Positions 5,951 to 32,908 of a DNA stretch of 64,000 nt are shown one piece after another (within the stretch, counting starts at the first letter, position 1; every line of letters starts with the position of its first letter). The position numbers were made by a program, and so were the translations under genes. The notes under the pieces are model-generated. The model had not been told where the DNA came from, made no database searches, and was given only the letters and a program-made list of their open reading frames with translations. The stretch spans positions 116,454 to 180,453 of the forward strand of contig CAZUTV010000001.1 in assembly GCA_964623495.1 (NCBI GenBank), read 5' to 3'. The stretch is from Candidatus Woesearchaeota archaeon. Lineage in GTDB: Archaea > Nanobdellota > Nanobdellia > Pacearchaeales > GW2011-AR1.

Positions 5951-7414
5951 CTACTTTTTCTTCTTTTTGCTAATTTTTTTCTTTGGCTTCTTTATCTTTG
6001 CAGTCTTCTTTTTCGGAGGAGGTGCAAGTTTCTTCTTAAAGCTCTCTGGCTTAATTTCAGTTTTCTTTGGCTCTGTCTTTTTTACTTCAATCTTCTTAGA
6101 TTTTATTTCTTTATGCTGGCCAAGCCTGGGCAGCATTGAAGTTTTAGGTTTTATTTCTTTGAACCCGGTATACTTCCAAAGAACAGGAGGAATCTTAATG
6201 CTTCCGTCTTTTTGCTGGAAGTTTTCCATTAAAGCAACTAAACCCCTAGAAGTTGCGATAACTGTGTTATTCAAGGTGTGTGCAAAATACCTCTCTCCTT
6301 TACTCTCAAACTTAATGTTAAGTCTTCTTGCCTGTGCATCTGTAAGATTTGAGCAAGAGCCAACCTCATAATACTCGTTCTTTACAGGGCTCCAGGCCTC
6401 AATATCTACCTGCCTGTTTTTTAAATCACCAAGATCTCCTGAGCACATTTCCAGAACCCTCACAGGTATTCCAAGCTTAGAAAAAAAATCAGTAGTAATC
6501 TCAACCATTCTTTCAAACCATTTTTCAGACTCGCCGGGAGAGCAAATGACTATCATCTCCTGTTTATTAAACTGATGTGTTCTAAAAAGCCCCTTCTCCT
6601 CAATTCCATGAGATCCAACCTCCCTTCTAAAACACATAGAATAGGCTGTTTGAAGCATAGGAAGATCTCTTTCATTAATGGTTTTATTAATAAACTGCCC
6701 TATAAGTGAATGCTCGCTGGTTCCTATCAAATATAAGTCCTCATCTTGAACTTTGTAAATCATAGAGTCTAACTCGGAAAAGCTCACAACGCCATCGACA
6801 ATCTCCTTCCTTATCATCAAAGGAGGTTCTACATACTGAAATCCCTGCTTAACCATATACTCTCTAGCAAAATTGATTAAAGCCTGATTCAAAATAGCCA
6901 AATCCCCTTTCAAGTAATAAAATCCTTTTCCAGACACTTCTGCAGAAATATCAAAATCCAGAATTCCAAGACTTTCTCCAAGCTCAATATGATTTCGGGG
7001 TTTAAAATCAAACTTTCTAGGTACCCCAAATTTCTTAAGCTCAACATTTTCCTTTGAATCTTTTCCAGAAGGAACATGCGGATGTATTATATTGGGGATT
7101 AGCATCAATGAAAGCCTCAATTCACCCTCAAGCTGCTTTCTCTTTTCTTCAATTTTCTCAATCTGCCCGGGAATTTTCTTAGCCATAGCAAGCTCTTTGC
7201 TTACATCTTTCTTCTCTTTCTTAAGCTGGTTGATTGCGAGGGAAATTTTGTTTCTGCTGGCTCTCAAACTATCTTCCTCGTGCTTAAGTTTTCTCCATTC
7301 TTCATCAAGCTTCTTTGCTTTGTCAACAAGAAAAAGCTTTTCATCCTGAAACTTCTTTTTTATATTATCTTTAACTAATTCCGGATTTTCACGTATAAGC
7401 TTTATATCAATCAT
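5951..7414 (-). CDS. serS: Seryl-tRNA synthetase with unusual ~60-aa Lys/Pro-rich C-terminal tail
   Basis: N-terminal coiled-coil MIDIKLIRENPELVK, class II motifs FRREVGSHG and NNTVIATSR. C-terminus KKIEVKKTEPKK...KKKISKKKKK. Confidence 0.9.
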   Translation of the reverse strand: MIDIKLIRENPELVKDNIKKKFQDEKLFLVDKAKKLDEEWRKLKHEEDSLRASRNKISLAINQLKKEKKDVSKELAMAKKIPGQIEKIEEKRKQLEGELRLSLMLIPNIIHPHVPSGKDSKENVELKKFGVPRKFDFKPRNHIELGESLGILDFDISAEVSGKGFYYLKGDLAILNQALINFAREYMVKQGFQYVEPPLMIRKEIVDGVVSFSELDSMIYKVQDEDLYLIGTSEHSLIGQFINKTINERDLPMLQTAYSMCFRREVGSHGIEEKGLFRTHQFNKQEMIVICSPGESEKWFERMVEITTDFFSKLGIPVRVLEMCSGDLGDLKNRQVDIEAWSPVKNEYYEVGSCSNLTDAQARRLNIKFESKGERYFAHTLNNTVIATSRGLVALMENFQQKDGSIKIPPVLWKYTGFKEIKPKTSMLPRLGQHKEIKSKKIEVKKTEPKKTEIKPESFKKKLAPPPKKKTAKIKKPKKKISKKKKK

Positions 7415-7490
7415 TTTATATAAAAAACAAGAGCATATTTAAATTTAATCTCTTCCAAACTTTTAAAAAAGAAAGATTCTTTTATTTAAC

Positions 7491-8117
7491 ATGGGGATAG
7501 AGGTACTAGCGCAGGCATATAGCTCAATACTTTCAAGTATTCCTTTATGGGCTCAAAAAGCAATTAATTTGCTCTTTCTTATAATGCTGGTTGTGATATA
7601 TGCTGTATTCATTTGGAAGCTCCACAGATTTGTAGCCAAGAAAAATATCTTAGAATTAAATTTAAACAAATACAACACTTCAGAACATCCAATCCTATCA
7701 AAATTCTTTGGGTTCTTATTATACTCTTTAGAATATCTCATAATTTTCCCGATATTAATCTTCTTCTGGTTCTGTGTATTTGGGGTTTTTTTGATCCTAA
7801 TGACCCAAAATATTGAAGTAAGCAACATAATCATTCTAACAGCAACAATAGTTGGCGCAATAAGAGTAATTTCATACCTTCCAAAATTCGGAGAAGCGCT
7901 AGCAAAAGAAATTGCAAAGCTCCTTCCATTAACACTATTAGCAATAGCAATGATAACCCCAAATTTCTTTGACTTTTCAAGGATAATACAAAATCTCAGT
8001 GAGATCCCAGAGTTTGTGGGGGAGATAGCGGCATACCTCGTATTCATACTGGCATTAGAAACAATCTTAAGATTAATCGACTCAATAGCTTCTGCCTGGA
8101 GACCGGAAAAATCTTAG
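7491..8117 (+). CDS. Polytopic membrane protein (hypothetical)
   Basis: Five to six hydrophobic helices. No motif recognised. Confidence 0.4.
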   Translation: MGIEVLAQAYSSILSSIPLWAQKAINLLFLIMLVVIYAVFIWKLHRFVAKKNILELNLNKYNTSEHPILSKFFGFLLYSLEYLIIFPILIFFWFCVFGVFLILMTQNIEVSNIIILTATIVGAIRVISYLPKFGEALAKEIAKLLPLTLLAIAMITPNFFDFSRIIQNLSEIPEFVGEIAAYLVFILALETILRLIDSIASAWRPEKS

Positions 8118-8171
8118 CCTAATTTATCCATATAATTTTTAAACCAAGGCACCCTATTAATAAAATAAAAG

Positions 8172-9884
8172 ATGGTGAACCCAATATTTACTCAACTTAG
8201 CCTGGTATTATTGATTGTGTTAGGGGTCTCTCTTGTGATGAGGATTCTTAAGCAGCCGTTAATAATTGGGTATATTATTGCAGGAATCTTAATAGGTCCT
8301 GTTGTTTTTGATTTGCTTCCGCATACAGAGACTATCTCTACTTTTTCTGAAATGGGAATTGCATTTCTGCTTTTTATCGTTGGACTGCACCTAAGCCCAA
8401 AGGTAATAAGGGAGGTCGGAAAAATATCTCTAATAACAGGAATAGGCCAGGTTTTGTTTACTTCAATAATAGGATATTTTATTTGCTTGGCATTAGGATT
8501 CAACTCAATAACCTCTGTTTACATTGCTGTTGCATTAACCTTTTCCTCAACAATCATAATCATGAAACTGCTTTCAGACAAAGACGCATTAGACAAATTA
8601 TATGGAAAGATCTCAATTGGTTTTCTTCTGATCCAGGACCTAATAGCAATAATTATTCTAATAGTAATCTCTTCTTTTTCTGGGAAAGGAAGCGGGGCAA
8701 CTTCAGCTCTCTTAACCCTCGGAAAAGGCACCCTGATTATTGCAGTGCTATTCCCACTTTGCTATTATCTTCTGCCTAAATTCAGCTCTTTCTTTGCAAA
8801 ATCCCAAGAGTTTTTGTTTGTATTCGCTATATCCTGGGGTTTGGGATTTGCGGCACTATTCTCGTATATGGGCCTATCCATAGAGGTCGGGGCATTAATT
8901 GCAGGCGTGTTGCTGTCAGTATCGCCATATGGCTATGAAATAAGTTCTAAATTAAAATCCCTAAGAGACTTCTTCATAATATCCTTCTTTATACTGCTAG
9001 GTTCACAAATGATATTCACAGATATAAGCAGATACATCATCCCCGCAATAGTGCTTTCATTATTCATTCTTATAGGAAACCCCCTAATAGTCATGATTTT
9101 AATGGGTTTATTTGGATACGGAAAAAATACCGGGTTTATGGCGGGCCTTACAGTCGCACAGATAAGCGAATTTTCCTTAATTCTCGTCGCTCTTGGGGCA
9201 AAACTCGGCCATGTTTCAAACGAAATTCTCTCTTTTGTAACAATAATAGGGCTGATAACTATTGCTGGCTCCACATACTTGATTATGTATTCAGATAAAG
9301 TATACCAGAAGATTTCAAAACGCCTTGGTATCTTTGAAAAAAAGAAGATAAAAGAAAAATTAATAATAAGTGAAAATTATGAATACGTTCTTTTCGGGGA
9401 GAACAGAATAGGATTTTCAATAATGAAAAAGTTCATTGAGTTAAAAAAGAAATACATTATTATAGACTTCAACCCAGAAAGAGTCAAAAAACTGCAGAAA
9501 CGAGGGATAAACTGCGTTTATGGAGATGTTTCCAACTCAGACCTTATTGATGAGCTAAAACTGGACAAGGCAAAGCTAATTGTCTCGACAATTCCAGAAA
9601 CAGAAGTCAGCACAATGCTACTTAACAAAATAAAAAGAAAGAATAAAAATGCAATAGTCATAGTGACCGGAAGGCAGATATCTGAAGCATTTGATCTTTA
9701 TAAGACAGGAGCAGATTATGTAATCATGCCCCATTTCCTGGGGGGAGAATATACTGCAGAGATTATAGAAAAAGCAGGGGATGAAAAAGTGGAGTATGAG
9801 ATAGAAAAAGCAAGGCATATTGCTGACCTAAAAGATAGGTTAAAAGAAGGGCAAGAGCATCCTTCGGTTGAAAAAGACCACTAA
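8172..9884 (+). CDS. CPA2-family cation:proton antiporter (KefB/NapA-like) with C-terminal TrkA-N/RCK domain
   Basis: N-terminal ~390-aa polytopic Na/H-exchanger-like domain; C-terminal Rossmann-like segment VLFGENRIGFSIMKKFIE...IIIDFNPERV typical of TrkA-N. Confidence 0.75.
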   Translation: MVNPIFTQLSLVLLIVLGVSLVMRILKQPLIIGYIIAGILIGPVVFDLLPHTETISTFSEMGIAFLLFIVGLHLSPKVIREVGKISLITGIGQVLFTSIIGYFICLALGFNSITSVYIAVALTFSSTIIIMKLLSDKDALDKLYGKISIGFLLIQDLIAIIILIVISSFSGKGSGATSALLTLGKGTLIIAVLFPLCYYLLPKFSSFFAKSQEFLFVFAISWGLGFAALFSYMGLSIEVGALIAGVLLSVSPYGYEISSKLKSLRDFFIISFFILLGSQMIFTDISRYIIPAIVLSLFILIGNPLIVMILMGLFGYGKNTGFMAGLTVAQISEFSLILVALGAKLGHVSNEILSFVTIIGLITIAGSTYLIMYSDKVYQKISKRLGIFEKKKIKEKLIISENYEYVLFGENRIGFSIMKKFIELKKKYIIIDFNPERVKKLQKRGINCVYGDVSNSDLIDELKLDKAKLIVSTIPETEVSTMLLNKIKRKNKNAIVIVTGRQISEAFDLYKTGADYVIMPHFLGGEYTAEIIEKAGDEKVEYEIEKARHIADLKDRLKEGQEHPSVEKDH

Positions 9885-9914
9885 ATCTTTTAAATAAACT
9901 CCATAAATAGAAAA

Positions 9915-12563
9915 ATGGCAAAATACGCGGGGCTTGAAAAAAAAGAAGTAGAAAAAAACTTAAAAAAATACGGATATAATGAGATAGAAGATATAAATAA
10001 GGTATCTATTCCCAAAATCTTGCTAAGGCAGGTGAGAAGCAACCTTATTCTTTACTTGCTGATTGCTGCAACAGCAATCTCATTTTTCGTTGGGGAAGAA
10101 ATAACCGCCTATGTAATTCTTGCAGTTATTTTCTTGGTGGTTGCTACCGGATTCTTTCAGGAGTACAAGGCAGAAAAAGCGATAAATGCATTAAAAGAAA
10201 TGATAGTGCCAATATCTATAGTAATTCGCGACGGAAAAGAAGAGGAAGTTCCTTCAAGAGAAATAGTCCCAGGAGATATAATTATCCTAAGGAATGGGGA
10301 GAGAATACCTGCAGACTGTATGGTTTTAGAAGAAACAGATTTGAAAGTTAACGAATCTGTACTTACAGGAGAATCGAGGGAAGTAGAAAAGTATGCAATA
10401 AAGGCAGAGAACTCCTATGAAGAAAAGAACATTGTATTTACAGGTTCATTTATAACAAACGGGAAATGCATAGCCAAAGCAGTTAACACAGGCATGAATA
10501 CTAAGTTTGGAAAAATTGCGGGGCTTATATCTACTGCTGAAAAAGAGCTTCTTCTGCAAAAAAGAGTTAACAAAATTTCAAAAACAATGGCCATAGTGGG
10601 AATTATTATTTCAATAATCACTGGTTTGATAATTTTCTTCCAAAACCCAAACTCAAATGAGGGATATATCCTAGAAGTTTTAATTATAGTTATAGCAATA
10701 ACAGTATCCTCGTTTCCCGAAGGATTTCCAGTAGTTCTCATAACAACTTTATCTCTTGGGGCATATAGAATGGCAAAAAAGAATGCAATAGTGAATAGGA
10801 TGTCAATAATAGAAACTCTTGGGGAAACAACAGTGATTTGCTCAGACAAAACAGGAACAATAACAAAAGGGGAAATGACTGCCAAAGAGCTATACGCCAA
10901 CCACAAAAAATACAGTATAACCGGCGTAGGCTATGAAGCAAATGGCGGATTTTTTGTTGATGAAAAAATGGCAAAGGCAGAAAAAGACCCTATTTTGAAT
11001 TCAATTCTAAAAACAGCCATCTTATGCAATGATGCTAGGATAATAAGGAAAGGAGAAGACAAGCTCTACCACATAAACGGCTCCCCAACAGAAGCGGCCT
11101 TATTAATAATGTCTGCAAAAGAAAATATTTTCTCAGAAGACATAAACCATGAAAGACTGGAAGAGATACCTTTTAGTTCTGAAAGAAAAATGATGTCGGT
11201 ATTATGCAAAGAAACAAAAGAAAAAACCCTCTATGCAAAGGGCGCTTTAAACGTCGTTTTTGAAAAATGCTCTTTCATTGAGAGAGATAATGGAACATTT
11301 AAACTGATAGAAAAAGACAAAAAAAGAATAAAAGAAGTGGAAGCAGAAATGGCTTCAAGATCTTTAAGAATTGTCGCTTTGGCCTATAAAAAAGTCAAGA
11401 ACTACACAAAAGACGATCTTGAAAAAGAGCTCGTGTTCTTGGGATTGGTTGGCATGGAAGATCCGCCAAGACCAGAGGTAAAAGAAGCGCTTGTCTTATG
11501 CAAAAAAGCAGGAATAAAAGTCAAAATGATAACCGGCGATGACAAAAAAACAGCAATGTCAATAGCAGCAGAGATAGGCCTGGCAAAAGGAACAGTAATA
11601 GAAGGTGATGAAATGGACAAAATAAGCGATCCAGATCTGGTTAAAATAGTCAACCAGGTTGTAATCTTTGCCAGAGTAAAGCCAGAGCACAAACTTAGAA
11701 TTGTCAAGGCCCTAAAAGAGAACAAAGAGATAGTAACTATGACGGGCGATGGGGTCAATGACGCCCCTGCACTAAAAGAAGCGCATATCGGGGTCGCGAT
11801 GGGAAAGAACGGAACAGATGTCTCAAGATCTGTGGCAGACCTAACCCTAAAGGACGATAATTTTGTAACAATAGTTGACGCAATAAAAGAAGGAAGGACA
11901 ATCTTTAACAACGCAAGAAAGTTTATCAGCTACCAGTTATCCTGCAACTATGCAGAGCTTGCCATACTTCTTGTAGGAGTGATTCTGGCCCCGGTTCTTG
12001 GATGGCCTGTCCCAATCCTGCTTGCCCTGCATATCTTATTTATGAATCTCGTAACAGACGACCTTCCTGCAATAACTCTGGGATTTAATGCTTCATCAAA
12101 GGATATAATGGAAGAAAAGCCAAGAAAAAAATCAGAGCTACTAAACAAAAAGTTTGTTCTTTTAATAGCATTTAACGGATTTATAATGGCATTCTTGACT
12201 TTAATGACTTTTTATGTCACTTACAACCTAATGCACGAAAATGTTTCTTATGCAAGAAGTTCTGCCCTTGTTGGCCTTATAGCCTTAGAAATCGCAGGTG
12301 CTTTTAACTTTAGGAGCTTCAGAAAAGGGGTGATGAACAGGTCTCCGTTAGTAAACAAATGGCTCCTTTATGCATCAATCATCTCCATACTTGCAACCCT
12401 AGCAATAATATACACCCCATTAAACATTGCATTTGAAACTTCCTCTCTTCACATAAGCGACTGGGTTGTTGCAATAGGCCTAGCTCTAGGGTCTATAGTA
12501 ATCTTTGATATTTTAAAATACTATAACAACAGAAAGAAATTCTGGGATTATGAAAAAGAATAA
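9915..12563 (+). CDS. P-type cation-transporting ATPase (type IIA Ca2+/Mg2+-like)
   Basis: Phosphorylation motif CSDKTGTIT, hinge MTGDGVNDAPALKEAHIGVAMG, TGES-like LTGES, 10 TM segments. Confidence 0.9.
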   Translation: MAKYAGLEKKEVEKNLKKYGYNEIEDINKVSIPKILLRQVRSNLILYLLIAATAISFFVGEEITAYVILAVIFLVVATGFFQEYKAEKAINALKEMIVPISIVIRDGKEEEVPSREIVPGDIIILRNGERIPADCMVLEETDLKVNESVLTGESREVEKYAIKAENSYEEKNIVFTGSFITNGKCIAKAVNTGMNTKFGKIAGLISTAEKELLLQKRVNKISKTMAIVGIIISIITGLIIFFQNPNSNEGYILEVLIIVIAITVSSFPEGFPVVLITTLSLGAYRMAKKNAIVNRMSIIETLGETTVICSDKTGTITKGEMTAKELYANHKKYSITGVGYEANGGFFVDEKMAKAEKDPILNSILKTAILCNDARIIRKGEDKLYHINGSPTEAALLIMSAKENIFSEDINHERLEEIPFSSERKMMSVLCKETKEKTLYAKGALNVVFEKCSFIERDNGTFKLIEKDKKRIKEVEAEMASRSLRIVALAYKKVKNYTKDDLEKELVFLGLVGMEDPPRPEVKEALVLCKKAGIKVKMITGDDKKTAMSIAAEIGLAKGTVIEGDEMDKISDPDLVKIVNQVVIFARVKPEHKLRIVKALKENKEIVTMTGDGVNDAPALKEAHIGVAMGKNGTDVSRSVADLTLKDDNFVTIVDAIKEGRTIFNNARKFISYQLSCNYAELAILLVGVILAPVLGWPVPILLALHILFMNLVTDDLPAITLGFNASSKDIMEEKPRKKSELLNKKFVLLIAFNGFIMAFLTLMTFYVTYNLMHENVSYARSSALVGLIALEIAGAFNFRSFRKGVMNRSPLVNKWLLYASIISILATLAIIYTPLNIAFETSSLHISDWVVAIGLALGSIVIFDILKYYNNRKKFWDYEKE

Positions 12564-14559: not shown

Positions 14560-14898
14560 ATGTCGAAGAATAAATGGATTAATATTGGGATAATTCTTGG
14601 AATTTTGGTTCTTGCAATTATAATAATAGAACTAAGAAAGCCGAACAACATAACAACAGAAGAAATTGCAAAGTGCATAGGAGAAACCTCAAAAATTTAC
14701 GTCCAACTAGGATGTCATTATTGTGAAAAACAATATGAACTATTCGGCAACTACACCAATTATTTAAACAAGGTTGACTGTTTCTATGAACGAGAAAAAT
14801 GTTCAGAGATTGATGGGACCCCTACCTGGCTGATAAAAGGAGAATATTACGAAGGGTATAAGGACTTAGAAACACTAAGAGAATTAACCGGGTGCTAA
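14560..14898 (+). CDS. Membrane-anchored thioredoxin-fold CxxC protein
   Basis: N-terminal TM helix, then GCHYC CxxC motif in a ~90-aa soluble domain. Immediately precedes ccdA. Confidence 0.55.
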   Translation: MSKNKWINIGIILGILVLAIIIIELRKPNNITTEEIAKCIGETSKIYVQLGCHYCEKQYELFGNYTNYLNKVDCFYEREKCSEIDGTPTWLIKGEYYEGYKDLETLRELTGC

Positions 14899-14899
14899 A

Positions 14900-15595
14900 A
14901 TGACAGAGTTCCTAAAAATAACCACTCTCGCCCTTGCAGATTCTGTAAATCCGTGCGAGATAGCAATTCTCGCAATGGTTTTAATATCCATATTAATCCA
15001 GCATCCTGAAAAAAAGCACAAAGTTTTGTCTGCCGGCTTTGCATTCGTTGCAGCAGTTTTTATAGGATACTTAGTTTATGGATTAATAATAGTGCAGTTC
15101 TTTAGGTTTTTTGCAGAATTTTTAAGGCAAAATTCAGCAGTCATTTACGACATGCTTGCAATTCTAGCAATGATTCTCGGAGCATTAAACATAAAAGATT
15201 TCTTCCACTACCAAAAGGGCAGCTTTGCAACAGAGATGCCGATTTTTTTAAGGCCAAAAGTAAAAAAGATCATAGACAAAATAACTTCCGCTAAAGGTGC
15301 ATTCATCCTTGGGTTTATAATAACTTTATTCTTATTGCCCTGCACCATGGGCCCATATATTGTAGCCTCTGGCTTATTGGCGAATCTGGGAATTATGGAC
15401 GCATTGCCTTGGCTGATATACTACAACATAATATTCTTGCTCCCAATGATCGCGATTGTCTTAATTGTATATTTCGGAGTTGCAAGAGTAGAAGATGTTG
15501 CTGGCTGGAAAGATAAAAATATCAAAATACTGCATTTAATAGCAGGGATTTTACTATTCTTAGTAGGGTTGGCAATGCTGTTAAAATGGCTATAA
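14900..15595 (+). CDS. ccdA: CcdA/DsbD-family transmembrane thiol-disulfide electron transporter
   Basis: LADSVNPC signature with first conserved Cys, second Cys in LLPCTMGP, 6 TM helices. Start is 2 nt after the stop of the upstream CxxC gene. Confidence 0.75.
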   Translation: MTEFLKITTLALADSVNPCEIAILAMVLISILIQHPEKKHKVLSAGFAFVAAVFIGYLVYGLIIVQFFRFFAEFLRQNSAVIYDMLAILAMILGALNIKDFFHYQKGSFATEMPIFLRPKVKKIIDKITSAKGAFILGFIITLFLLPCTMGPYIVASGLLANLGIMDALPWLIYYNIIFLLPMIAIVLIVYFGVARVEDVAGWKDKNIKILHLIAGILLFLVGLAMLLKWL

Positions 15596-21003: not shown

Positions 21004-22059
21004 ATGGAAAATAAAGGGGTTTTATCTATATCTTTGATTGTAATGTCAATCCTTGCTGTTTTTCTAGTGGGTTTCGTAATGGCCGAAGATAATAATAGTT
21101 TAGGTAATAACAATTCAGGGAACGACAACAACCAAACACCAAACAACAATTCCGATAATAATGCTACCTCCTGCACAGAAGATTCTGATTGTACAAGAGG
21201 CTATGAATGCGAAGATGGCTTATGTGTTTTGGATGACGATGATGAGGAGGAAAATGAAACAGATGACGATTCTGATGACAATGAAGAAAACGAAACATCA
21301 TGTGAATGGAGATGCGGGGGTTGGTCTACATGTGCAAATAACAGCCAGACAAGAACCTGTGAAAATCCCATGAACTGCACAAGCCAAACACCTAAGTTAA
21401 GTAGATACTGCGCACAAAGAGATAAAGTTTGCTGCAAGTCAACAGAGATTGATGAAGATAACGAGACTAAAATAGAATATGAATATGAAGACCGATCTTC
21501 CTGTGTAAGTGAAGAAGGAGAAACAAAAGAAATTGTTGAAAAATCTCTTTGCATGAACAGGATAAGGGAAGAGTGTGATTACGACTCCGTAAAAGACCGG
21601 GTAAAATGCAGACTCGAAAACAGAAACAGGTTTGCAAACTTTTCAGAGTCTAATGAAACCTGTGAGGGATTGAGAAACAAAGGACTGTGTGTTGCGCTAT
21701 ATGTTCGGTCACAAAACTGTTTTAAGTTTGAAGAAGGAGAGAAAAAAGACCGATGCTTCAAGCAGGTCGCTGAATTCAGGCAGCACCAATTAAATAAGGA
21801 AGTAAATGAAAGCACAAACCAAACAAAAGCAAAAGAGAAAGTAAGGACTTACATGGTGTTGGTTTTGGAAAACCTACAAAAAAGAGCTGAGAAGGCTGTC
21901 GAGAATGGCAAGCTAACTTCATTGCAAGGAGCTAACATAATTGAGAGAATAGTTGAACTAAAGCAATCTCTACTAAATGAGGAAGATAAAGAAACAATTA
22001 GATTACAGATTCAAGAACTAAAAAACCTATGGAAGGTGCAGAGACTAGAAAATGAATAA
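21004..22059 (+). CDS. Secreted Cys-rich protein with Asn/Asp/Glu low-complexity region and conserved EWRCGGWSTC...TRTCENPMNCT module
   Basis: Signal/TM LSISLIVMSILAVFLVGFVMA. Cys module shared with ORF 27054..28217, including a 33-nt identical DNA stretch. Confidence 0.5.
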   Translation: MENKGVLSISLIVMSILAVFLVGFVMAEDNNSLGNNNSGNDNNQTPNNNSDNNATSCTEDSDCTRGYECEDGLCVLDDDDEEENETDDDSDDNEENETSCEWRCGGWSTCANNSQTRTCENPMNCTSQTPKLSRYCAQRDKVCCKSTEIDEDNETKIEYEYEDRSSCVSEEGETKEIVEKSLCMNRIREECDYDSVKDRVKCRLENRNRFANFSESNETCEGLRNKGLCVALYVRSQNCFKFEEGEKKDRCFKQVAEFRQHQLNKEVNESTNQTKAKEKVRTYMVLVLENLQKRAEKAVENGKLTSLQGANIIERIVELKQSLLNEEDKETIRLQIQELKNLWKVQRLENE

Positions 22060-22793: not shown

Positions 22794-23273
22794 ATGTTCA
22801 AAATTAATATATCTACAAAAGAAGGAAAAACCTACAAGCTGGAACTAGAAAGCGAAGCGCTTACTGAAAAAGAACTTCATTCAAAAATCCCGGGAAATGA
22901 TTTGCTTCCTGCATTAGACGGCTATGAATTGGAGATTACAGGAGCAAGTGACAAAGCAGGTTTTCCTGCAGTTGAAGAGGTTGAAGGTGTTGGACTAAAA
23001 AAAGTTTTGCTAAAATACGGAAAAGCTATGAAAAACAGGCCAAGAAAATTTGGGAAGAAAAAAAGGTCAAAAAACAAACCAAAAGGCCTAAGATTGAGAA
23101 AAACAGTAAGGGGAAAGGTTATCTCTCCGGACATTATTCAAATTAATTTAAAAGTAATTAAGGAAGGGAAAAAAAGCCTTCAAGAGATATTCCCAGAGCA
23201 AAACAAGCCAAAGGAAAAAGTCAAATGGCAGCCTCCAAAGCCTGCAGAAGCTCCGGCAGAACCTGCGCAATAA
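22794..23273 (+). CDS. rps6e: 30S ribosomal protein eS6 (S6e) with Lys/Pro-rich C-terminal extension
   Basis: GYELEITGASDKAGFP...RKTVRGKVISPDIIQINLKVIKEG matches archaeal S6e (GYKLKITGGSDKDGFPM...RRKTVRGN.IS.DIVQIN). Confidence 0.8.
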   Translation: MFKINISTKEGKTYKLELESEALTEKELHSKIPGNDLLPALDGYELEITGASDKAGFPAVEEVEGVGLKKVLLKYGKAMKNRPRKFGKKKRSKNKPKGLRLRKTVRGKVISPDIIQINLKVIKEGKKSLQEIFPEQNKPKEKVKWQPPKPAEAPAEPAQ

Positions 23274-23341
23274 TTGATACTTCTTATCAGTAACAACAAA
23301 ATAGAAACATTTATAAACCTCTAATTTCTAAGCAAAATACA

Positions 23342-23551
23342 ATGACAAATGAGGATTATTCAAGACTTGCAATAGAAGACGCTTATGATAATTTAGTTGC
23401 AACACGAACACCAAATCCTAGAAGCAATCAAACACTAACATACGAATGCGGACGCTGCGGGCAAAGTGTCGGTGATTTAGTTGCTCACCAGGATGTTTTT
23501 CACCCAGATGTTGTTCAAGCAAGAAACTTAAGCTTAACAAGAAAAAGATAA
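23342..23551 (+). CDS. Small hypothetical protein with CGRCG motif
   Basis: 69-aa ORF; YECGRCGQSVGDLVAHQ. Uncertain. Confidence 0.3.
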   Translation: MTNEDYSRLAIEDAYDNLVATRTPNPRSNQTLTYECGRCGQSVGDLVAHQDVFHPDVVQARNLSLTRKR

Positions 23552-23552
23552 A

Positions 23553-23900
23553 ATGAGGACATTAAAAAGAGTGTTCATTAACACAACATTAATTGCAACA
23601 GGATTATTATTTGTTCCACCCATAGTAGAATCTCTCTTTGATAAGCCAATTAAACAAACAAGTGCAGAACAAAGACCATTGACTACCCAAGATATTCAAA
23701 CTGCAAACTGGTTAAAATATGAGGGCAACAAGGAAAGAAGAGATCCAAGTTACAAATTCTTTAGTTTTGAAAATGTTCCGCAGAGAATAGGTAATGAAAA
23801 TACCTATGTTAGAGAAGTTGAACAAAGAAATTATGGGGCAGCAGATAGTTTGTGGGAATATCCAGACCTAGACGGAAACGGAATAGTTAAATCAAGATAA
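23553..23900 (+). CDS. Small secreted hypothetical protein
   Basis: N-terminal signal-like segment TLIATGLLFVPPIV. Confidence 0.3.
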   Translation: MRTLKRVFINTTLIATGLLFVPPIVESLFDKPIKQTSAEQRPLTTQDIQTANWLKYEGNKERRDPSYKFFSFENVPQRIGNENTYVREVEQRNYGAADSLWEYPDLDGNGIVKSR

Positions 23901-24593
23901 TTATCTTTCTTTCAAAAAATCATAAAATCTCATTCCTTTAATTTTTTCTAAATCTTCTTGAGAAACATCCACATTAGGGAGATGATAATAAACCATAGTT
24001 CCTTCATCCATAAAGCCAGTTGTTCCATGCGAATCAAGAATAAATCTCTTAAATCCCTGTCCGCCATCAGGCCTAATCTGCCTCCTAGATAAAGACTCAA
24101 GAGCTCTTAAAACAACTCTAACAGCCATGCTAGGAGAATAAATTGAAGGTCTTCTTTTAGTCAATAACTGAATTTGTTCTGGATCCTTTTCAACCAGCTC
24201 TGTTGCAAGGATGTCTTCATTCTTACGAATAACTTTAGAATAATTAAATCCTCCCCCTCCATCTCTAACATGAATCAAAACGTCAGAAGGATAAAAATCT
24301 CTCCCAACAATAACATGTTCATACGGAAAGCCCTTATTTCCCCATTCTGCAGCATTCCTCACCATCTCAAGTTCAGCACTTTCAAGCCATTCTGCAATAG
24401 TATGGTGCTCATTTATTCTTCTGTCTCCGAAAACTCCAGAATAAACTTGCATTAAGTATCTTTGATAAGCAGACGTATCCTCTCCTTCTTGCGCATAAAA
24501 ACGCCTCAAATCAGAACCAAAAGCCTCTGAATGAGTATATAATGGATCTCCTAATTCTGCCTTAATTTCCCATAATGATTTATCAGAAATCAT
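23901..24593 (-). CDS. GHKL/histidine-kinase-like ATPase domain protein (RsbW/SpoIIAB-like serine kinase fold), tentative
   Basis: LEMVRNAAEWGNKG (N-box-like E..NA..HG) followed by VLIHVRDGGGGF (G1 box D.G.G). GC elevated relative to flanks. Start overlaps the stop of the upstream HicA-domain gene. Confidence 0.5.
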   Translation of the reverse strand: MISDKSLWEIKAELGDPLYTHSEAFGSDLRRFYAQEGEDTSAYQRYLMQVYSGVFGDRRINEHHTIAEWLESAELEMVRNAAEWGNKGFPYEHVIVGRDFYPSDVLIHVRDGGGGFNYSKVIRKNEDILATELVEKDPEQIQLLTKRRPSIYSPSMAVRVVLRALESLSRRQIRPDGGQGFKRFILDSHGTTGFMDEGTMVYYHLPNVDVSQEDLEKIKGMRFYDFLKER

Positions 24594-24594
24594 C

Positions 24595-24951
24595 TTAATC
24601 CTCTCTGTTGATGCCTAAAAGACGCAGGATATTTTTAAGGGTCCCAGGACGAACATCTTCATTATCATTTCTGTGTGGAACTGCGGCTGTTCTGCCATCG
24701 GGCATTTCATAGATTTTATGGGCAGAACTTCTAACTAATCTACCCCCATGGCTTTGAATTAATCTTCTAAGATCTCTAACCTTCATTGGTTTAAACCCCC
24801 CAAAGAAAACAACATTGTCCAGATAAGAATCATTTCTTCTCTCTCTTAAACCTTCAAAATCTATTCCAGCATAAGCTGGCTGGTAGCTTGCAAAGTAATC
24901 TAAGAATTTTTCTCTTACTGAATTGTAAATTTCTATTATTGCCTGTCTCAT
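24595..24951 (-). CDS. HicA-domain (YcfA-like) protein with ~55-aa N-terminal extension
   Basis: C-terminal KVRDLRRLIQSHGGRLVRSSAHKIYEMPDGRTAAVPHRNDNEDVRPGTLKNILRLLGI closely follows the HicA mRNA-interferase pattern (..GSH..y..p.g..ttvPhH.kdl..GtlksIl.qaGl). Confidence 0.6.
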   Translation of the reverse strand: MRQAIIEIYNSVREKFLDYFASYQPAYAGIDFEGLRERRNDSYLDNVVFFGGFKPMKVRDLRRLIQSHGGRLVRSSAHKIYEMPDGRTAAVPHRNDNEDVRPGTLKNILRLLGINRED

Positions 24952-25044
24952 TTTCTATATCACTTTTCAGTAGTTACTATTTATAAAGGTTTCTAAAATG
25001 GCTTTAAAAGAACATTTTAAAAACTTACCAAAGCATCTGTTTAA

Positions 25045-26262
25045 ATGGCAAAGACAGAAACAAAACAAGAAGCAAAAGAGATTCCAGAAATAAATGTCGG
25101 AGTAGTTGGGCACATAGATCACGGCAAAACAACACTTTTAAGCAAGCTGACCGGAAAATTCACAGACACTCATTCAGAAGAGCTAAAAAGAGGAATCACA
25201 ATAAAGCTTGGTTATGCTGATGCTACGATTTACAAAAAAGACAATGTTTTTTCAACAAAAAAAGAGCCTGGAGCTGTTCCTGTAAGATACATAAGCTTTA
25301 TTGATGCGCCCGGTCACGAGATGCTTATGGCAACAATGCTTTCTGGAGCTGCAATAATTGATGCTGCAATTCTTGTTATTGCGGCAAACGAAGGAATAAA
25401 ACCCCAAACCAAAGAGCATTTCATGGCCTTGCAGGCAAAGAAAATAAAGAACATTATAATAATCCAAAACAAAATTGACCTTGTAAACAAAGAGCAGGCG
25501 CTAAAAAACTATAAAGAAATAAAGGAATTTGTCAAAGGAAGCCTGGCAGAAAACTCCCCAATAATTCCGATTTCTGCGCAGCAGGAAATAAACATTGACA
25601 GGCTTCTTGAAAAACTCTGCAAGATAGAAATTCAAAAAAAAGACTCTGCAAGCTTTCCTCTTTTCCTAATAGCGAGAAGTTTCGACATAAACAAGCCAGG
25701 GACAAAACTCCAAAACATAAAAGGGGGGGTTCTTGGAGGAGTTTTAAAGCAAGGAAAGTTAAAAGTTGGCCAGGAGATTGAAATAAAGCCCGGATTAAAC
25801 TATGTGAAGGCAAATCAAAGAGTTTACGAGACAATAACTGCAAAAATCCTCTCGCTGCATAAAGGAAATCAAACACTTGAAGAAGTTTATCCTGGTCCAA
25901 GCATCTCAATAGAAACTTCGTTAGACCCAACACTAACAAAAACAGATTCCCTGACAGGATGCTTAGTCTCTTCAAAAGGAAATCTACCTGAAATAACACA
26001 CAAGGTAAAAATAAAATCAAGGATTTTCGGAGAAGTTCTAGGCAGTGAAAAGAGCCAGAAGGTAGACCCAATAAAGACAAAAGAACTTTTGATGCTAAAC
26101 ATAAACACAACAATAACTGTAGGCAGCGTTGAAAAAATCTCTGGAAATGAATTAGAGCTTGCATTAAATATTCCTATAGTCCCTTTAAAAGGCGAAAACG
26201 TCGGAATTGCCAGAAACATTAACGGCCACTGGAGGTTAATCGGCTGGGGCGAGATAATCTAA
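25045..26262 (+). CDS. eif2g: Translation initiation factor aIF2 gamma subunit
   Basis: NVGVVGHIDHGKTTL, DAPGHE, NKID, zinc-knuckle-lacking EF-Tu-like domains II/III. The long antisense ORFs inside it are spurious. Confidence 0.9.
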   Translation: MAKTETKQEAKEIPEINVGVVGHIDHGKTTLLSKLTGKFTDTHSEELKRGITIKLGYADATIYKKDNVFSTKKEPGAVPVRYISFIDAPGHEMLMATMLSGAAIIDAAILVIAANEGIKPQTKEHFMALQAKKIKNIIIIQNKIDLVNKEQALKNYKEIKEFVKGSLAENSPIIPISAQQEINIDRLLEKLCKIEIQKKDSASFPLFLIARSFDINKPGTKLQNIKGGVLGGVLKQGKLKVGQEIEIKPGLNYVKANQRVYETITAKILSLHKGNQTLEEVYPGPSISIETSLDPTLTKTDSLTGCLVSSKGNLPEITHKVKIKSRIFGEVLGSEKSQKVDPIKTKELLMLNINTTITVGSVEKISGNELELALNIPIVPLKGENVGIARNINGHWRLIGWGEII

Positions 26263-26344: not shown

Positions 26345-27022
26345 ATGATCCCAAAACATGTTGCAATAATCCCTGACGGAAACAGAAGATGGGCCAAAAA
26401 AAGGGGAATCCCAATAAGCCTGGTTTATAAGATTTCTGGAGACTATCAACGGGCTAAGAAAAAGGCAGAAGAAGCAAAAAAACTCGGGATAAAATGCCTT
26501 TCAATATGGGCCTTTTCAACAGAGAATTGGAAAAGGGATGAAAAAGAAATAAAATCAACATTTGAAACAATAAACAATTTTCTTGATTTAATGATAAAAA
26601 ATGTAAAAGACGACAAAATCGGATTTAGATGGATTGGGAGGAGCGATAGAATCCCAAAAAATACCTTAAAAAAATTAATTGAACTTGAAGCAAAAACAAA
26701 GAAATACCGGACTTTTACACTTGTGCTTGGGATAGATTATGGAGGAAGAGACGAATTAATAAGATCCATAAACAAGGCAATACAAAATAAAAAAACAATC
26801 AATGAGAAATCTTTTCAAAATTTTCTTGACACAAAAAATCTTCCTGATCCGGATCTAATAATTAGGACAGGAGGGGAGAAACGTCTTTCAGGACTGATGC
26901 CTTTCCAAGCAACCTATGCAGAGCTATACTTCACAGATAAATTTTTTCCTGAATTTGAAATAGAAGACTTAAAGAAAGCAGTAAAAGATTTTGAAAACAG
27001 AAAAAGAAATTTCGGAAAGTAA
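26345..27022 (+). CDS. uppS: Undecaprenyl/cis-prenyl diphosphate synthase (cis-IPTase)
   Basis: HVAIIPDGNRRWA, SIWAFSTENWKR, IRTGGEKRLSGLMPFQATYAELYF. Confidence 0.85.
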   Translation: MIPKHVAIIPDGNRRWAKKRGIPISLVYKISGDYQRAKKKAEEAKKLGIKCLSIWAFSTENWKRDEKEIKSTFETINNFLDLMIKNVKDDKIGFRWIGRSDRIPKNTLKKLIELEAKTKKYRTFTLVLGIDYGGRDELIRSINKAIQNKKTINEKSFQNFLDTKNLPDPDLIIRTGGEKRLSGLMPFQATYAELYFTDKFFPEFEIEDLKKAVKDFENRKRNFGK

Positions 27023-27053
27023 GGCTTATAAATCTAAAAAAACTGTCTTTAAG

Positions 27054-28217
27054 ATGAAAAAGGGGTTGCTAATCTTTGTATCTTTAGTATTAGTATTAAC
27101 TTTATCTATTAGTGCAGAAACCTATGATGCTTCTGAATCTGATCTTGTAAGCGGATACACAAAGGACCTTGAGTCAGGGGACCAGATAGAATTTACAATA
27201 GGCGTAGAAAGGTATGGCCTAAAAGTTAATGCAATATATCAAAACATGATTAAGATAAAAGTTTCCCAAAACGATCCTAAATTTTTGGGAATTTCTGGAA
27301 ATGCAAACCCATCAGAGATAAAACTTGAGCTAGATTTTGACAATTTTTATGACCTCGAAACAAAGTTGAATAGTATAGCAGAAGAAGGAAATGACTCGCT
27401 TATCGCCAGCCTAACCTTAAAAAAAATACATGAAGAAATTCCTGCAAACACGGTCTTGCCATACTCTTGTTATAAAGCCTACGCCTGCCCTAATGGAGAA
27501 AAAATAAAGCAGTGTTGGGAGATAGTTAAGGAAAATGAAACAACTGCTTGCAGATGCCAGGGAGTTTCAACAGAAGATTGTGAAAGCCAGAGGCAAGAAA
27601 AAGCGTGTGAATGGCAGTGTGGGGGCTGGACAGAGTGCATAAATGGAACAAAAACAAGAACCTGTGAAAATCCCATGAACTGCACAAAAGCAGAGCCAGA
27701 AGAATCACAAGCGTGTCAAATTCAGCAGCAAAGCGAGAAAAAAATTCTTAAGTTCGAGAATAAAACAGGGGAAGTGTGCTTGGAAGGTTGCACATGCCAG
27801 GGCGTTGTAATGAGATGTAATCTTGCAGCAGGAAGAGAAATGGTGGTTTATACATCCTCTGGAAACACAATAGTCCAGGTTCAAGGAATTAACATGACAA
27901 CAAATGTTACCTTATACAAAGAAGGGGACATTATTAAAGGAAATTTTTCAGGCAACAGGGAAAAAGAGATAATTCTTCCAGACCGCGTTAAAGAAAATAT
28001 AAAAGAAAAAATTAAATCAACCCTGGAAAATTTGGAGATGGAACTGACAAATGAAGGTTTCTACGAAGCGCACGGAAAAAAGAAAGCGCGTTTATTTTTC
28101 ATAATACCTACAAAAGAAAGCATAAATGCCCAGGTTAATGCAGAAAACGGCCAGATCATAAGCACAAGTAGCTCTTGGTGGGGTTTCCTAGCAAGAGACA
28201 GGAAGGAAAACAATTAA
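27054..28217 (+). CDS. Secreted Cys-rich protein, paralogue of 21004..22059 (shared EWQCGGWTEC...TRTCENPMNCT module)
   Basis: Start placed at MKKGLLIFVSLVLVLTLSISA (signal peptide) rather than the upstream extension overlapping uppS. Conserved Cys module. 33-nt DNA identity with the 21.3 kb copy. Confidence 0.5.
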   Translation: MKKGLLIFVSLVLVLTLSISAETYDASESDLVSGYTKDLESGDQIEFTIGVERYGLKVNAIYQNMIKIKVSQNDPKFLGISGNANPSEIKLELDFDNFYDLETKLNSIAEEGNDSLIASLTLKKIHEEIPANTVLPYSCYKAYACPNGEKIKQCWEIVKENETTACRCQGVSTEDCESQRQEKACEWQCGGWTECINGTKTRTCENPMNCTKAEPEESQACQIQQQSEKKILKFENKTGEVCLEGCTCQGVVMRCNLAAGREMVVYTSSGNTIVQVQGINMTTNVTLYKEGDIIKGNFSGNREKEIILPDRVKENIKEKIKSTLENLEMELTNEGFYEAHGKKKARLFFIIPTKESINAQVNAENGQIISTSSSWWGFLARDRKENN

Positions 28218-30367: not shown

Positions 30368-32908
30368 ATGGAAAAAAGAGGGGTGAAAAAGAGCTTTGTA
30401 ATCTTTGCTCTTTTTATAATATTCACACTTTCTATTTCATTAGTTTCTGCAAGTTTTTTCGCTGATTTCTTTAAAAAATTCATTACAGGAAGAGCCACTG
30501 GTGGTGAAGGCACTAACTGTGTTGATTCAGACGGACAGTGGAATTATAATGTTGCAGGAACAGTAACTTTGGGTATTGATGAAGGATCGGTAGTATATTA
30601 TGATGTTTGTGAAGAAAATATTGCTTATGATTATTACTGTGATGTGGGTGATCCATTTTATGCGAAAGCATTTCTTCCACTCACAGGAGGGGTTATAGGT
30701 GACCCTCCTTTGCCTGCCAAGGTATCAAGTAGAAACTGTGCCGAATCTGGCCAAATCTGCTGGAGCGGAGGCAGGTGTGGCTGCAACATTGCTGGAAAAA
30801 TAACCTGCGGGCCTCCTGAAGCAGGAATTGGGGTTTGCACAAGCGGAACAACCACCTGCAGCAATGGAAATTACGGACCGTGTACTGGAGCAGTTTATCC
30901 TTCAACAGAAATTTGTGATGGATTAGACAATAATTGTAACCATGCTGTTGATGATTATGCTACTTGCCCAAGCGGGCAAACCTGCACAGGAGGACAGTGT
31001 GTTCAAAGCGCATGCACCCCTGCAACATGTACTAGTCTGGGAAAACAATGTGGATCTTGGACTAATGGAACTTGCAGTGGAACAGTAAATTGTGGAAGTT
31101 GTTCTACAGGATACATTTGTAACGAAGGCGTATGTGAACCACAACAATGCACCCCAAATATAGATAAATTAGATTGCACAGTCCCAAACAAACAAGGGAT
31201 ATGTGCTCAGGGCCAAAAAACATGTTTAGCTGATGGAAGTGGCTACGGAATATGTCAGCAAGTAGTTCAACCAACAACAGAAACCTGCAATAACTTAGAT
31301 GATAATTGCGATGGAACAATAGATAATTCAACAGACGCTAACAATTGGTGCCAAGCACAACCGTCATACGGTGCAAACTACACTTGCATCGGAGGTTCAT
31401 GTATTCCACCATCTTGTCAGACAAAAACAAAAACCCAAGTATGTGATGATCAAAACATAAGGTGTGGGGAAGTTTCTGACGGCTGTGGGGGAACAATTAG
31501 CTGTGGTGTTTGTGGGCAAGGATTAACATGCACAAACGGCCAGTGTGTACAAGGCCAGGAATGCACACAAGATTCTAACTGCGCTTCTGGAAAAATATGC
31601 ACAAATTCCGGCAAGTGCAAAAATCAGTGTACGGATTTAGATGGCGACGGAAGAATCAAAGAATCAGCGGCAAGCTTTAACTCAGCATCTGGTTGCGGTT
31701 ACAGACCAACAACATCCAACAACCCACAAGGTTTAGCAATGAACACTATACCTAACTACCAGCTCCTTGCAACAGGCACTGATGACGCTCCTTTAGGATA
31801 CGAAGACTGCAATGATACTGATCCAAAAATCTACCCCGGAGCAGCAGAAACGTGCAACAATATAGACGACAATTGCAACAATGAAATAGACGACGGCCTT
31901 ATAGGAAACCAGCTGACTTGTGTTACAGAAGAATACGGATGCATAGGTGTTTTTCAGGACTGCTATTTTGGGGTCCATTATGATTCCTGTTCATCTTTGA
32001 ATTTTAAAGATGCCCAAGCAGCAGAAGTTTGCGGAGATAACTTCGATGATAACTGCGATGCTGATGGAAGTCTCGTTGACGGATGCACTCAGCCATGCAC
32101 TGATGGAGACACCTCTTCATGTAGGACAGACAACCCTTGTGAAGAAGCAGAGCAAACCTGCACAAACGGAGTATGGGGAGCATGTAAGGTGGTATCCACA
32201 GATCCTGATTGCGATGAAGAAACCGCATGCACTCCTTTGGAACAGGAAATTTGCGGAAAGAATGTGGGGATCTGCTCTGTAGGATCCAGAACCTGCAAGA
32301 CAGACGGAACATGGGGAGAGTGCACTGATGTAAAGCCAGTATCTGAAATATGTAATGATAATCTAGATAATGACTGTGACGAAGAAACAGATGAAAACTG
32401 CCAAACAGGTTCATCAAGCTCTTCCTCATCAAGTTCTAGCTCTTCAAGCAGTTCTTCTTCGGGCGGAGGAATAGAAGAAGAAAACACAAGCTTCTGGGAC
32501 AGACTAATTAACTTTTTCCTTGCAATATTCAGAGTAGGCCAGGTATTGCTCGGAGGATCAATAACTCCTTCAACAACTCCTGCTGCAACAGAAGTATTCT
32601 GTGCAGATTCAGATAATGGAAAATCTATCTTTGTAAAAGGCACAGGAGAGGGGCTTAACATGCAGGATATAAAAACATTCTTCACAGATACCTGCTTTGA
32701 AGGCGATTTAAATAATCAGGTTGAATCGTGCTTAGACGAAAATTGCTACCTAGCAGAACATTTCTGCGAAAACAAGTATGTAAAATATGAAAGAGAAGAA
32801 TGTGACTTCGGATGTTCTCAGGGCGCATGTCTTCCAACAGAACAAAGCCAGAATTGTGAGCCTTACCTTGATGAAGAAACATTCCAACTGGTAAACCCTT
32901 GTGAATGA
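30368..32908 (+). CDS. Large secreted Cys-rich protein with multiple MopE-like (C-x-D/N-x-D-N-D/N-C-D/N...D) putative metal-binding repeats and an 18-residue poly-Ser tract
   Basis: Signal peptide; repeats EICDGLDNNCNHAVDD, ETCNNLDDNCDGTIDN, ETCNNIDDNCNNEIDD, EVCGDNFDDNCDADGS, EICNDNLDNDCDEETDENC. Over 90 Cys. Poly-Ser SSSSSSSSSSSSSSSSSS. Confidence 0.55.
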   Translation: MEKRGVKKSFVIFALFIIFTLSISLVSASFFADFFKKFITGRATGGEGTNCVDSDGQWNYNVAGTVTLGIDEGSVVYYDVCEENIAYDYYCDVGDPFYAKAFLPLTGGVIGDPPLPAKVSSRNCAESGQICWSGGRCGCNIAGKITCGPPEAGIGVCTSGTTTCSNGNYGPCTGAVYPSTEICDGLDNNCNHAVDDYATCPSGQTCTGGQCVQSACTPATCTSLGKQCGSWTNGTCSGTVNCGSCSTGYICNEGVCEPQQCTPNIDKLDCTVPNKQGICAQGQKTCLADGSGYGICQQVVQPTTETCNNLDDNCDGTIDNSTDANNWCQAQPSYGANYTCIGGSCIPPSCQTKTKTQVCDDQNIRCGEVSDGCGGTISCGVCGQGLTCTNGQCVQGQECTQDSNCASGKICTNSGKCKNQCTDLDGDGRIKESAASFNSASGCGYRPTTSNNPQGLAMNTIPNYQLLATGTDDAPLGYEDCNDTDPKIYPGAAETCNNIDDNCNNEIDDGLIGNQLTCVTEEYGCIGVFQDCYFGVHYDSCSSLNFKDAQAAEVCGDNFDDNCDADGSLVDGCTQPCTDGDTSSCRTDNPCEEAEQTCTNGVWGACKVVSTDPDCDEETACTPLEQEICGKNVGICSVGSRTCKTDGTWGECTDVKPVSEICNDNLDNDCDEETDENCQTGSSSSSSSSSSSSSSSSSGGGIEEENTSFWDRLINFFLAIFRVGQVLLGGSITPSTTPAATEVFCADSDNGKSIFVKGTGEGLNMQDIKTFFTDTCFEGDLNNQVESCLDENCYLAEHFCENKYVKYEREECDFGCSQGACLPTEQSQNCEPYLDEETFQLVNPCE

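Follow-up and report, generated by a model that had tools for sequence, protein, structure and literature searches.

The two genes described here lie side by side in a 64,000-nucleotide (nt) stretch of contig CAZUTV010000001.1 (assembly GCA_964623495.1, positions 116,454-180,453), which we call the window and whose own positions serve as coordinates throughout. Gene 1, on the minus strand at 24595..24951 including its TAA stop codon, is an open reading frame (ORF) for a 118-residue protein with a HicA domain. Gene 2, on the minus strand at 23901..24593, encodes a 230-residue protein that we assign, from its ORF and a family profile, to the GHKL ATP-binding proteins of the HATPase_c_2 (SpoIIAB/RsbW) type. 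Limits and lengths agree with those given in an initial annotation of this DNA. The genes are arranged head to tail, with the HicA gene first, and the evidence assembled below leaves us highly confident that they form a genuine, functionally linked pair.

The layout of the locus is operon-like. The junction between the genes reads GAG GAT TAA g ATG, in which the stop codon of gene 1 (24597-24595) and the ATG of gene 2 (24593-24591) are separated by a lone spacer base at 24594. The initial annotation had claimed an overlap of stop and start, which is absent, and a tight coupling, which holds in the form of the 1-nt spacer and a Shine-Dalgarno-like run. This run, the purine-rich AGAGAGGA (24599..24606, minus strand), is read from the sequence within the last codons of gene 1, 5 nt before the ATG of gene 2, and the tight spacing together with this internal AGAGAGGA suggests that translation of the two genes is coupled. 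Upstream of gene 1, a TATA-box-like octamer TTTATAAA within AGAAACCTTTATAAA (24980..24987, minus strand, likewise recognised by reading the sequence) starts 36 nt before the HicA ATG. Similar octamers start 29-36 nt before many first-in-operon start codons of the window, and a related locus (L004) carries TTTATAAA upstream of its own HicA gene in identical geometry; the octamer is likely to be the promoter of a two-gene operon. Because of the spacing of the octamer and the presence of the AGAGAGGA run, we read the pair as a probable single operon with a short leader and an internal ribosome-binding site. Its transcription is predicted to start about 6 nt before the HicA ATG. The longer promoter-like motif (A)GAAAC.TTTATAAA recurs at 23302-23317 and 24980-24995 and in many other upstream regions, with its octamer 29-36 nt before start codons, a spacing that points to mostly leaderless or very short-leader transcripts in the source genome. 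A scan for bacterial sigma-70 promoters and terminators was set aside as uninformative for an archaeon.

The assignment of the gene 1 product to the HicA family is firm, and is based on its Pfam score, a conserved histidine and its modelled fold. Pfam model HicA_toxin (PF07927) matches residues 59-114 over model positions 2-58 of 58 with 38.4 bits (cut-off 27; expectation value, E, 1.4e-9), so that the domain lies, as the initial annotation had it, behind an extension of about 55 residues. A source database names the product 'predicted RNA binding protein YcfA (HicA-like mRNA interferase family)', and a sequence search of the PDB returned weak matches to solved HicA structures, the best being the T. 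thermophilus HicA-like protein 1whz. In an AlphaFold2 (AF2) model built from the four-member family, residues 56-114 are predicted at a local confidence (pLDDT) of about 85-90 and form helix 58-67, strands 71-75, 79-82 and 88-91, and helix 102-112. AF2 and Foldseek define a domain resembling a double-stranded RNA-binding domain (dsRBD), of alpha-beta-beta-beta-alpha order, at codons 56-114 (24610..24786, minus strand). In the PDB, HicA toxins fill all of the first five places in the Foldseek ranking: 1whz, 6hpb, 6g26 (represented twice, by different chains) and 5yrz, at template-modelling (TM) scores of 0.72-0.86 and root-mean-square deviations of 1.4-2.3 Å. The catalytic histidine on which the earlier HicA reading depended is kept after alignment: His78, in R-S-S-A-H, is invariant across four lineages, falls on the GGH histidine of 1whz in the alignment and adjoins the mutated H24 position of 4c26. 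A second conserved histidine, His93, lies in V-P-H. From family membership and the modelled fold, the protein would be expected to act as a toxic RNase.

Ahead of this domain, the alignment of four lineages delimits a family-specific N-terminal extension at codons 1-55 (24787..24951, minus strand). It is acidic, with an isoelectric point (pI) of 5.1 for residues 1-55 against a basic 10.8 for codons 56-118, and it is present in all four HicA partners, in L003 by way of that gene's longer start. Its invariant residues are A26 and Y27, in the motif AYAG, and L44; in the AF2 model it is helical, with a low pLDDT of 40-64. The invariant candidate phospho-acceptors of the protein are Y27, S75, which stands three residues before His78, and T88.

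The gene 2 product is a divergent GHKL protein, and we accept its homology to the HATPase_c_2 group on the strength of profile comparisons. Its subfamily comprised three clusters in 5.8 billion proteins, to which P0004 and P0005 were added when 1.84 billion representatives were searched exhaustively with a profile, for a total of five. Immediately after these five members, the profile search reaches HATPase_c_2 proteins at library-wide E values of 3.5e-8 to 7e-4 (1.84 billion proteins). Eight of the nine next matches to E 0.001 were checked, and all match HATPase_c_2, most of them above its cut-off. The proteins reached include duplicated HATPase_c_2, REC-HATPase_c_2 and GAF-SpoIIE-HATPase_c_2 architectures. 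With hhalign, the five-member family aligns with seven HATPase_c_2 domains, all of which pass the Pfam model, at 99.2% probability and E 8.5e-20 from the N box to the G1 box; these E values are flattering, since the comparison set was drawn from the family's own matches, a bias from which the library-wide values are free. Removal of an insertion of about 55 residues between G1 and G2 raises the probability to 99.5% over 93 columns and carries the alignment through the G2 box and the last two strands. A search of PDB sequences with the GHKL family profile gave weak matches to CheA and RsbW only (E 0.1-0.75), and the same search with the 230-residue protein alone gave none. NCBIfam returned a chance aIF-2beta match only (E 0.14). 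In neither Pfam nor NCBIfam did the protein match HicB, and the initial annotation was right to set it apart from that usual partner.

The Bergerat-fold, ATP-binding motifs of this protein are intact. The alignment places the N box at codons 76-86 (24336..24368, minus strand), where E-MVR-N-AAEWGN contains a putative catalytic Glu and a putative Mg-binding Asn and aligns with the E...NA..HGN motif of HATPase_c_2 domains. The G1 box, DGGGGF (DxGxG), occupies codons 111-116 (24246..24263, minus strand) and the G2 box, DGGQGF, codons 176-181 (24051..24068, minus strand); after the latter comes a strand motif at G198 that is the equivalent of GNEV in HATPase_c_2. Invariant in the five family members are E76, N80, G113, G115, G177, G178, G180 and G198, and D111 is kept in four of the five, being displaced by one position in P0005. 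Both G boxes encode DGGxGF, and at the DNA level they fall in a 20-nt direct repeat of 75% identity (24049-24068 and 24244-24263). Between them the alignment defines a basic ATP-lid insertion at about codons 121-172 (24078..24233, minus strand) with a pI of 10.4, which AF2 models at pLDDT below 50 and which is shorter in P0005.

The lid sets this subfamily apart from its closest GHKL outgroups, found in the exhaustive search: the stand-alone, short-lid proteins P0007 (176 residues), P0012 (192 residues) and P0008. All three share the N-box signature NA..WGN, and P0007 and P0012 share in addition an N-terminal K-S-L-.-E motif; P0007 and P0012 differ in their short G1-G2 spacer. Because these outgroups have a short spacer and, where it can be read, no upstream HicA gene, the long lid appears to be a feature of the HicA-linked GHKL branch, in a shorter version in P0005. 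P0008 (114 residues; L008 514-1043) is itself preceded by an overlapping ORF of 70 residues in another frame, and the two together resemble one GHKL gene of about 184 residues that was frameshifted or miscalled.

That the two genes belong together is argued above all by their strict co-occurrence. In all four lineages with readable upstream DNA, a HicA gene lies directly upstream of the GHKL gene, and the pair therefore recurs beyond the window, as would be expected of the module that the initial annotation described. In the window lineage the genes are 1 nt apart, and the same spacer is found in the P0002 lineage (L001, L002, L010 and L011), where the GHKL proteins are 62-63% identical to that of the window. 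The spacer is 2 nt in the P0004 lineage (L003; 42% identity) and gives way to a 4-nt ATGA overlap in the P0005 lineage (L004-L006 and L012; 32-34%). P0003 was left out of the count, as its contig ends 68 nt upstream of the GHKL gene. The HicA proteins diverge to a similar degree, their identities to the window protein falling to 32-33%. A profile search with the N-extended HicA proteins recovered only those four in 5.8 billion proteins, and because the search returned just the four partner proteins, the N-extended HicA and GHKL subfamilies exist only together. About 15 billion proteins yielded no more than four or five lineages of the family, and a pattern scan of 185,579 species-representative genomes found no member of it. 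The stand-alone relatives P0012 and P0008 have no upstream HicA gene where their DNA is readable (L007-L009). The HicA link could not be extended to P0007, the nearest short-lid relative, a lone sequence on a contig that stops within the gene before it. A candidate paralogous copy in the window, two ORFs of 112 and 231 residues with a 1-nt spacer at 14560-15595 (plus strand), was rejected, its products being a thioredoxin-like protein (CxxC) and a DsbD/CcdA-like membrane protein.

Between close variants of the P0002 lineage, the HicA gene shows a ratio of nonsynonymous to synonymous substitution rates (dN/dS) of 0.04-0.09 and the GHKL gene one of 0.23-0.26; although these values come from few substitutions, they indicate purifying selection on both genes. 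The charges of the partners are also of interest, as in three of four lineages an acidic GHKL protein (pI 5.4-5.6) faces a basic HicA domain (pI 10.8).

The pair behaves as an accessory, relocating cassette: it occupies three chromosomal sites and is absent from both of the syntenic sites that could be compared, one in 78 related loci and one in the window. In the window and in the P0002 lineage it is placed between S6e and aIF2-gamma. Of the 80 related DPANN genomes compared (L013-L092), 56 have an S6e gene that directly precedes aIF2-gamma and shares its strand, and none of the 80 encodes either protein of the pair within 3 kb. Among these genomes the gap between S6e and aIF2-gamma ranges from 60 to 2741 bp and contains different small genes in different genomes, and because both its length and its small-gene content vary, we regard it as a variable insertion hot spot. 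In the window the gap (22794-26262) holds orf69, orf115, the GHKL gene and the HicA gene. The P0005 lineage carries the pair at a second site, between a CPA2 antiporter gene and a gene for a 215-residue membrane protein beside the gene for seryl-tRNA synthetase (SerRS). Positions 1-7794 of L004 are syntenic with 5951-12563 of the window (SerRS 75%, P-type ATPase 61%, antiporter 49% and membrane protein 51% identity), the antiporter gene being inverted between the two. The window counterpart of the L004 site is empty, with 54 bp between the genes (8117 and 8172). In L003, finally, the pair adjoins a gene for class II lysyl-tRNA synthetase.

No terminal repeats were found around the cassette. 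A 16-nt inverted repeat, 23302-23317 / 24980-24995, was considered as the end of a mobile element and rejected, since both of its arms are the local promoter motif, resembling a TATA box and B recognition element (BRE), that is seen before many genes. We also considered orf115 and orf69 as third components of the system and rejected them: no lineage but the closest retains them, neither accompanies the pair in L003 or L004, and weak relatives of orf115 occur in genomes without the pair. The orf115 product (23553-23900, plus strand) has a hydrophobic, signal-peptide-like N-terminus, and its gene is convergent with the GHKL gene, the two stop codons abutting within a 13-nt palindrome (23889-23912).

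The composition of the locus is native-like. The initial annotation had described a GC-elevated patch of foreign-looking composition, and this does not survive comparison with the rest of the window: the GC fraction of the 1051-bp region is 0.368 versus 0.364 for the whole window, which puts it at the 62nd percentile of windows of the same size, and the GC fraction at third codon positions (GC3) of the pair, 0.23-0.28, is equal to or below that of the flanking genes. A local peak of 0.39-0.40 in 500-nt windows is within normal variation. Nothing in the composition of the pair points to its having been acquired recently. A truly GC-rich stretch does lie nearby, at 30368-32908 (0.43, and up to 0.46 in 500-nt windows), with an ORF of 846 residues that has repeated MopE-type putative metal-binding motifs.

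The neighbours of the pair are archaeal housekeeping genes, namely S6e, aIF2-gamma (TIGR03680, above cut-off), archaeal IF-2/aIF5B and a UppS-type prenyl transferase. The closest aIF2-gamma genes, 69-77% identical, come nearly all from metagenome-assembled genomes labelled Pacearchaeota, Woesearchaeota or Nanoarchaeota among the 185,579 species representatives. Judged by these genes, the host context of the pair is DPANN archaea, Pacearchaeota/Woesearchaeota-like.

We propose that the HicA protein is a toxin controlled by its GHKL partner, in a toxin-antitoxin-like cassette of DPANN archaea. We would give this proposal an even chance of being correct, and it covers any biological role, whether in addiction, stress or defence. 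The proposal draws on a gene order like that of hicAB, on the dual action of HATPase_c_2 proteins and on type VII precedents in which the antitoxin is an enzyme. SpoIIAB and RsbW bind one partner stoichiometrically and phosphorylate a Ser or Thr of a second, and their ATP/ADP state decides which. By analogy, the GHKL protein, which takes the position of HicB, would most likely keep HicA inactive post-translationally. It could do so by ATP-dependent stoichiometric binding of HicA, in the manner of anti-sigma factor sequestration; alternatively or additionally, it may phosphorylate a Ser or Thr of HicA in the style of a type VII antitoxin. The N-terminal extension of HicA and the enlarged basic ATP-lid of its partner could serve as mutual docking surfaces that have co-evolved. 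A drop in ATP or loss of the GHKL protein would then free HicA, which would cut RNA and arrest the cell. The most specific form of this proposal is one that we offer tentatively, as possible rather than probable: that an anti-sigma-type GHKL serine kinase was recruited as a HicA antitoxin acting by phosphorylation, sequestration or both, with the extension for docking and with toxin release reading out the ATP supply, and that the pair founds a new type VII-like class. If so, it would be, to our knowledge, the first partner-switching kinase found to control a toxin, and this in organisms that rely on a host for their nucleotides.

Several observations weigh against toxin control by the GHKL protein. 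In single-sequence Pfam searches the 230-residue protein reaches HATPase_c_2 (PF13581) with E 0.25 and 11.8 bits, below the cut-off of 27.4, and no curated GHKL model is passed by the protein alone; single sequences of P0004 and P0005 match HATPase_c_2 at E 1e-4 to 1e-3, also below cut-off. The RsbW-like GHKL identity given in the initial annotation is upheld by the N, G1 and G2 motifs and by homology at the level of profiles, but not by the significance of the single sequence. The structural evidence, though supportive, is a weak point as well: the AF2 model of the protein is moderate (pLDDT 61) with the lid unmodelled, and its top Foldseek matches, SpoIIAB, RsbW and UsfX, have E values of 0.02-0.1, about 0.02 at best. 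The fourth lineage breaks the pattern of opposite charges with a basic GHKL protein (pI 8.9). The known HATPase_c_2 kinases target STAS-domain proteins rather than dsRBD-like ones. Neither protein has a DNA-binding domain, which leaves autoregulation unsupported. The identifiable neighbours are all housekeeping genes with no defence gene among them, and no PADLOC defence-system model matched either protein. Both the toxicity of HicA and its interaction with the GHKL protein are predictions drawn from sequence. Finally, the family is confined to a few closely related metagenomic lineages, so that co-occurrence could partly reflect shared ancestry; simple vertical synteny is disfavoured, because the pair occupies different loci.

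The alternative that fares best is a pair with no toxin in it, in which the HicA-like dsRBD is an RNA-binding regulator or adaptor and the GHKL protein its kinase or partner-switching controller, the whole forming an archaeal signalling module. Such a role would suit gene 1, as HicA proteins fold like a dsRBD that binds RNA (PMC10865869), and HATPase_c_2 proteins are the classic partner-switching regulators, the fold matches here being SpoIIAB, RsbW and UsfX. A location among housekeeping and translation genes and a native-like GC content also speak for this alternative. A pure binder, however, would have no need of the catalytic His and the S-x-H motif, which are strictly kept, and a core regulator would hardly be missing from nearly all relatives or move between loci as this cassette does. 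We consider this alternative unlikely.

Antiviral defence by abortive infection is a distinctly doubtful alternative. Here the GHKL protein would act as a sensor that holds HicA until a viral cue or an infection-induced depletion of ATP releases it, and the function would be antiviral rather than one of addiction or stress. A case for defence has been made for HicA contexts (Gerdes 2024, PMC10865869), the DefensePredictor study (PMC13092281) saw E. coli protected by a system that contains HicA, and an accessory cassette at variable sites is in keeping with such a function. The lack of any PADLOC match counts here too, however, and the nearby genes that could be identified encode translation factors, tRNA synthetases and transporters, with no defence gene adjacent. 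Moreover, no homologue of either protein was found in IMG/VR viral contigs, and none turned up among viral structure predictions.

A reversal of roles, which we judge very improbable, would make the GHKL kinase the harmful effector, acting on an essential target, and the extended HicA-domain protein its neutraliser or a substrate decoy. Kinase toxins do exist in toxin-antitoxin biology, for example a kinase of the HipA family and the kinase domain of EzeT, which is toxic, and the ATP-binding motifs of the GHKL protein are fully conserved; we know of no GHKL-fold toxin, however. The HicA-first order matches that of hicAB, in which the toxin gene comes first, and the catalytic His of HicA is conserved. 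The GHKL relatives P0012 and P0008 occur without an upstream HicA gene, which would be hard to tolerate if such proteins were toxic. That the genes are unrelated chance neighbours with no functional coupling is scarcely credible: tight packing is usual in small DPANN genomes, and the window has many gene pairs that lie 1-4 nt apart (14560-15595 is an example), but these two are found together in four of four lineages, at three loci and with identities as low as about 32%, and each subfamily is present only alongside the other.

Control of HicA by the GHKL protein, if it is correct, would matter for several reasons. HicA is among the most widespread toxin domains, and ATP-dependent binding or phosphorylation would hold an RNase toxin in check by a different mechanism, adding to the few systems with an enzyme as antitoxin. 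It would also indicate that the SpoIIAB/RsbW scaffold can be re-targeted in archaea to a partner that is neither a STAS-domain protein nor a sigma factor. The pair is compact (118 and 230 residues, with clear point mutants) and bears on the coupling of growth arrest to energy status in genome-reduced DPANN archaea. Taken together, the sequence evidence is suggestive of a toxin-antitoxin-like cassette that joins HicA to an enzyme; it is very rare and so far confined to a few DPANN lineages.

Elsewhere in the window, two Cys-rich proteins, of 351 residues (21004-22059) and 408 residues (26991-28217), have hydrophobic, signal-peptide-like N-termini and a nearly identical module, CEW[RQ]CGGW[ST].C.N...TRTCENPMNCT. 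Neither matches Pfam, and they may represent a paralogous family of surface proteins. A giant ORF of 2777 residues lies at 50931-59264 on the minus strand.

Among known systems, hicAB is the one that the pair most readily calls to mind. In hicAB classes 1, 3 and 4 the HicA gene comes first and the partner follows, the first gene being the toxin (PMC10865869). The pair described here shares with hicAB a leading gene for a HicA dsRBD-like domain with the conserved His, a partner gene within a few bases and the character of a small accessory cassette at variable sites; a DNA-binding domain is missing from both proteins, as it is in hicAB classes 1 and 2. It differs in that the partner is a GHKL ATP-binding protein and not HicB (a partial RNase-H or DUF1902-type fold, often joined to an HTH, RHH or Phd domain that binds DNA), with neither an RNase-H-like nor a DUF1902 fold, and in the 55-residue N-terminal extension, which among 5.8 billion proteins occurs in no HicA beyond the four lineages. 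Because the product of the adjacent gene is a GHKL protein and not a HicB, we do not class the pair as hicAB. Gerdes 2024 (PMC10865869) describes 14 HicA contexts, including HicB variants, viperin neighbours, HicA-HicB fusions and an SMC fusion, all but three of them with a HicB-type partner, and none of the 14 has a GHKL partner. Literature searched in full text for HicA in combination with HATPase, GHKL or anti-sigma likewise gave no description of such a pair, and within that literature the view that the pairing is of an undescribed type stands.

From the side of gene 2, the comparison is with SpoIIAB, RsbW and UsfX. The 230-residue protein belongs with them in the same GHKL subfamily by profile (99.5%) and finds in them its best fold matches (E 0.02-0.1); its N, G1 and G2 boxes are intact, and like them it is a small single-domain protein encoded beside its presumed partner. 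The differences are an archaeal host, the ATP-lid insertion of about 55 residues, a longer region before the N box, and a presumed partner that is an RNase toxin domain. Archaea lack sigma factors, and no STAS, PP2C or sigma-factor gene was found among the called genes and Pfam-scanned ORFs beside the pair in any of its loci.

The likeness to type VII toxin-antitoxin systems (HepT-MntA and TglT-TakA) is a proposed one only: an enzyme encoded beside the toxin would neutralise it by a covalent modification that uses a nucleoside triphosphate. TakA phosphorylates the toxin TglT, and it is mentioned together with type VII and phosphorylation in papers on toxin-antitoxin systems. MntA, for its part, polyadenylylates the HepT RNase (PMC7641770). 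Sequestration of HicA would be equally possible as its modification. The folds differ on both sides of the comparison: the putative antitoxin has a GHKL fold in place of the MNT nucleotidyltransferase or the TakA kinase, and the putative toxin is a HicA protein in place of a HEPN or MenT-like one.

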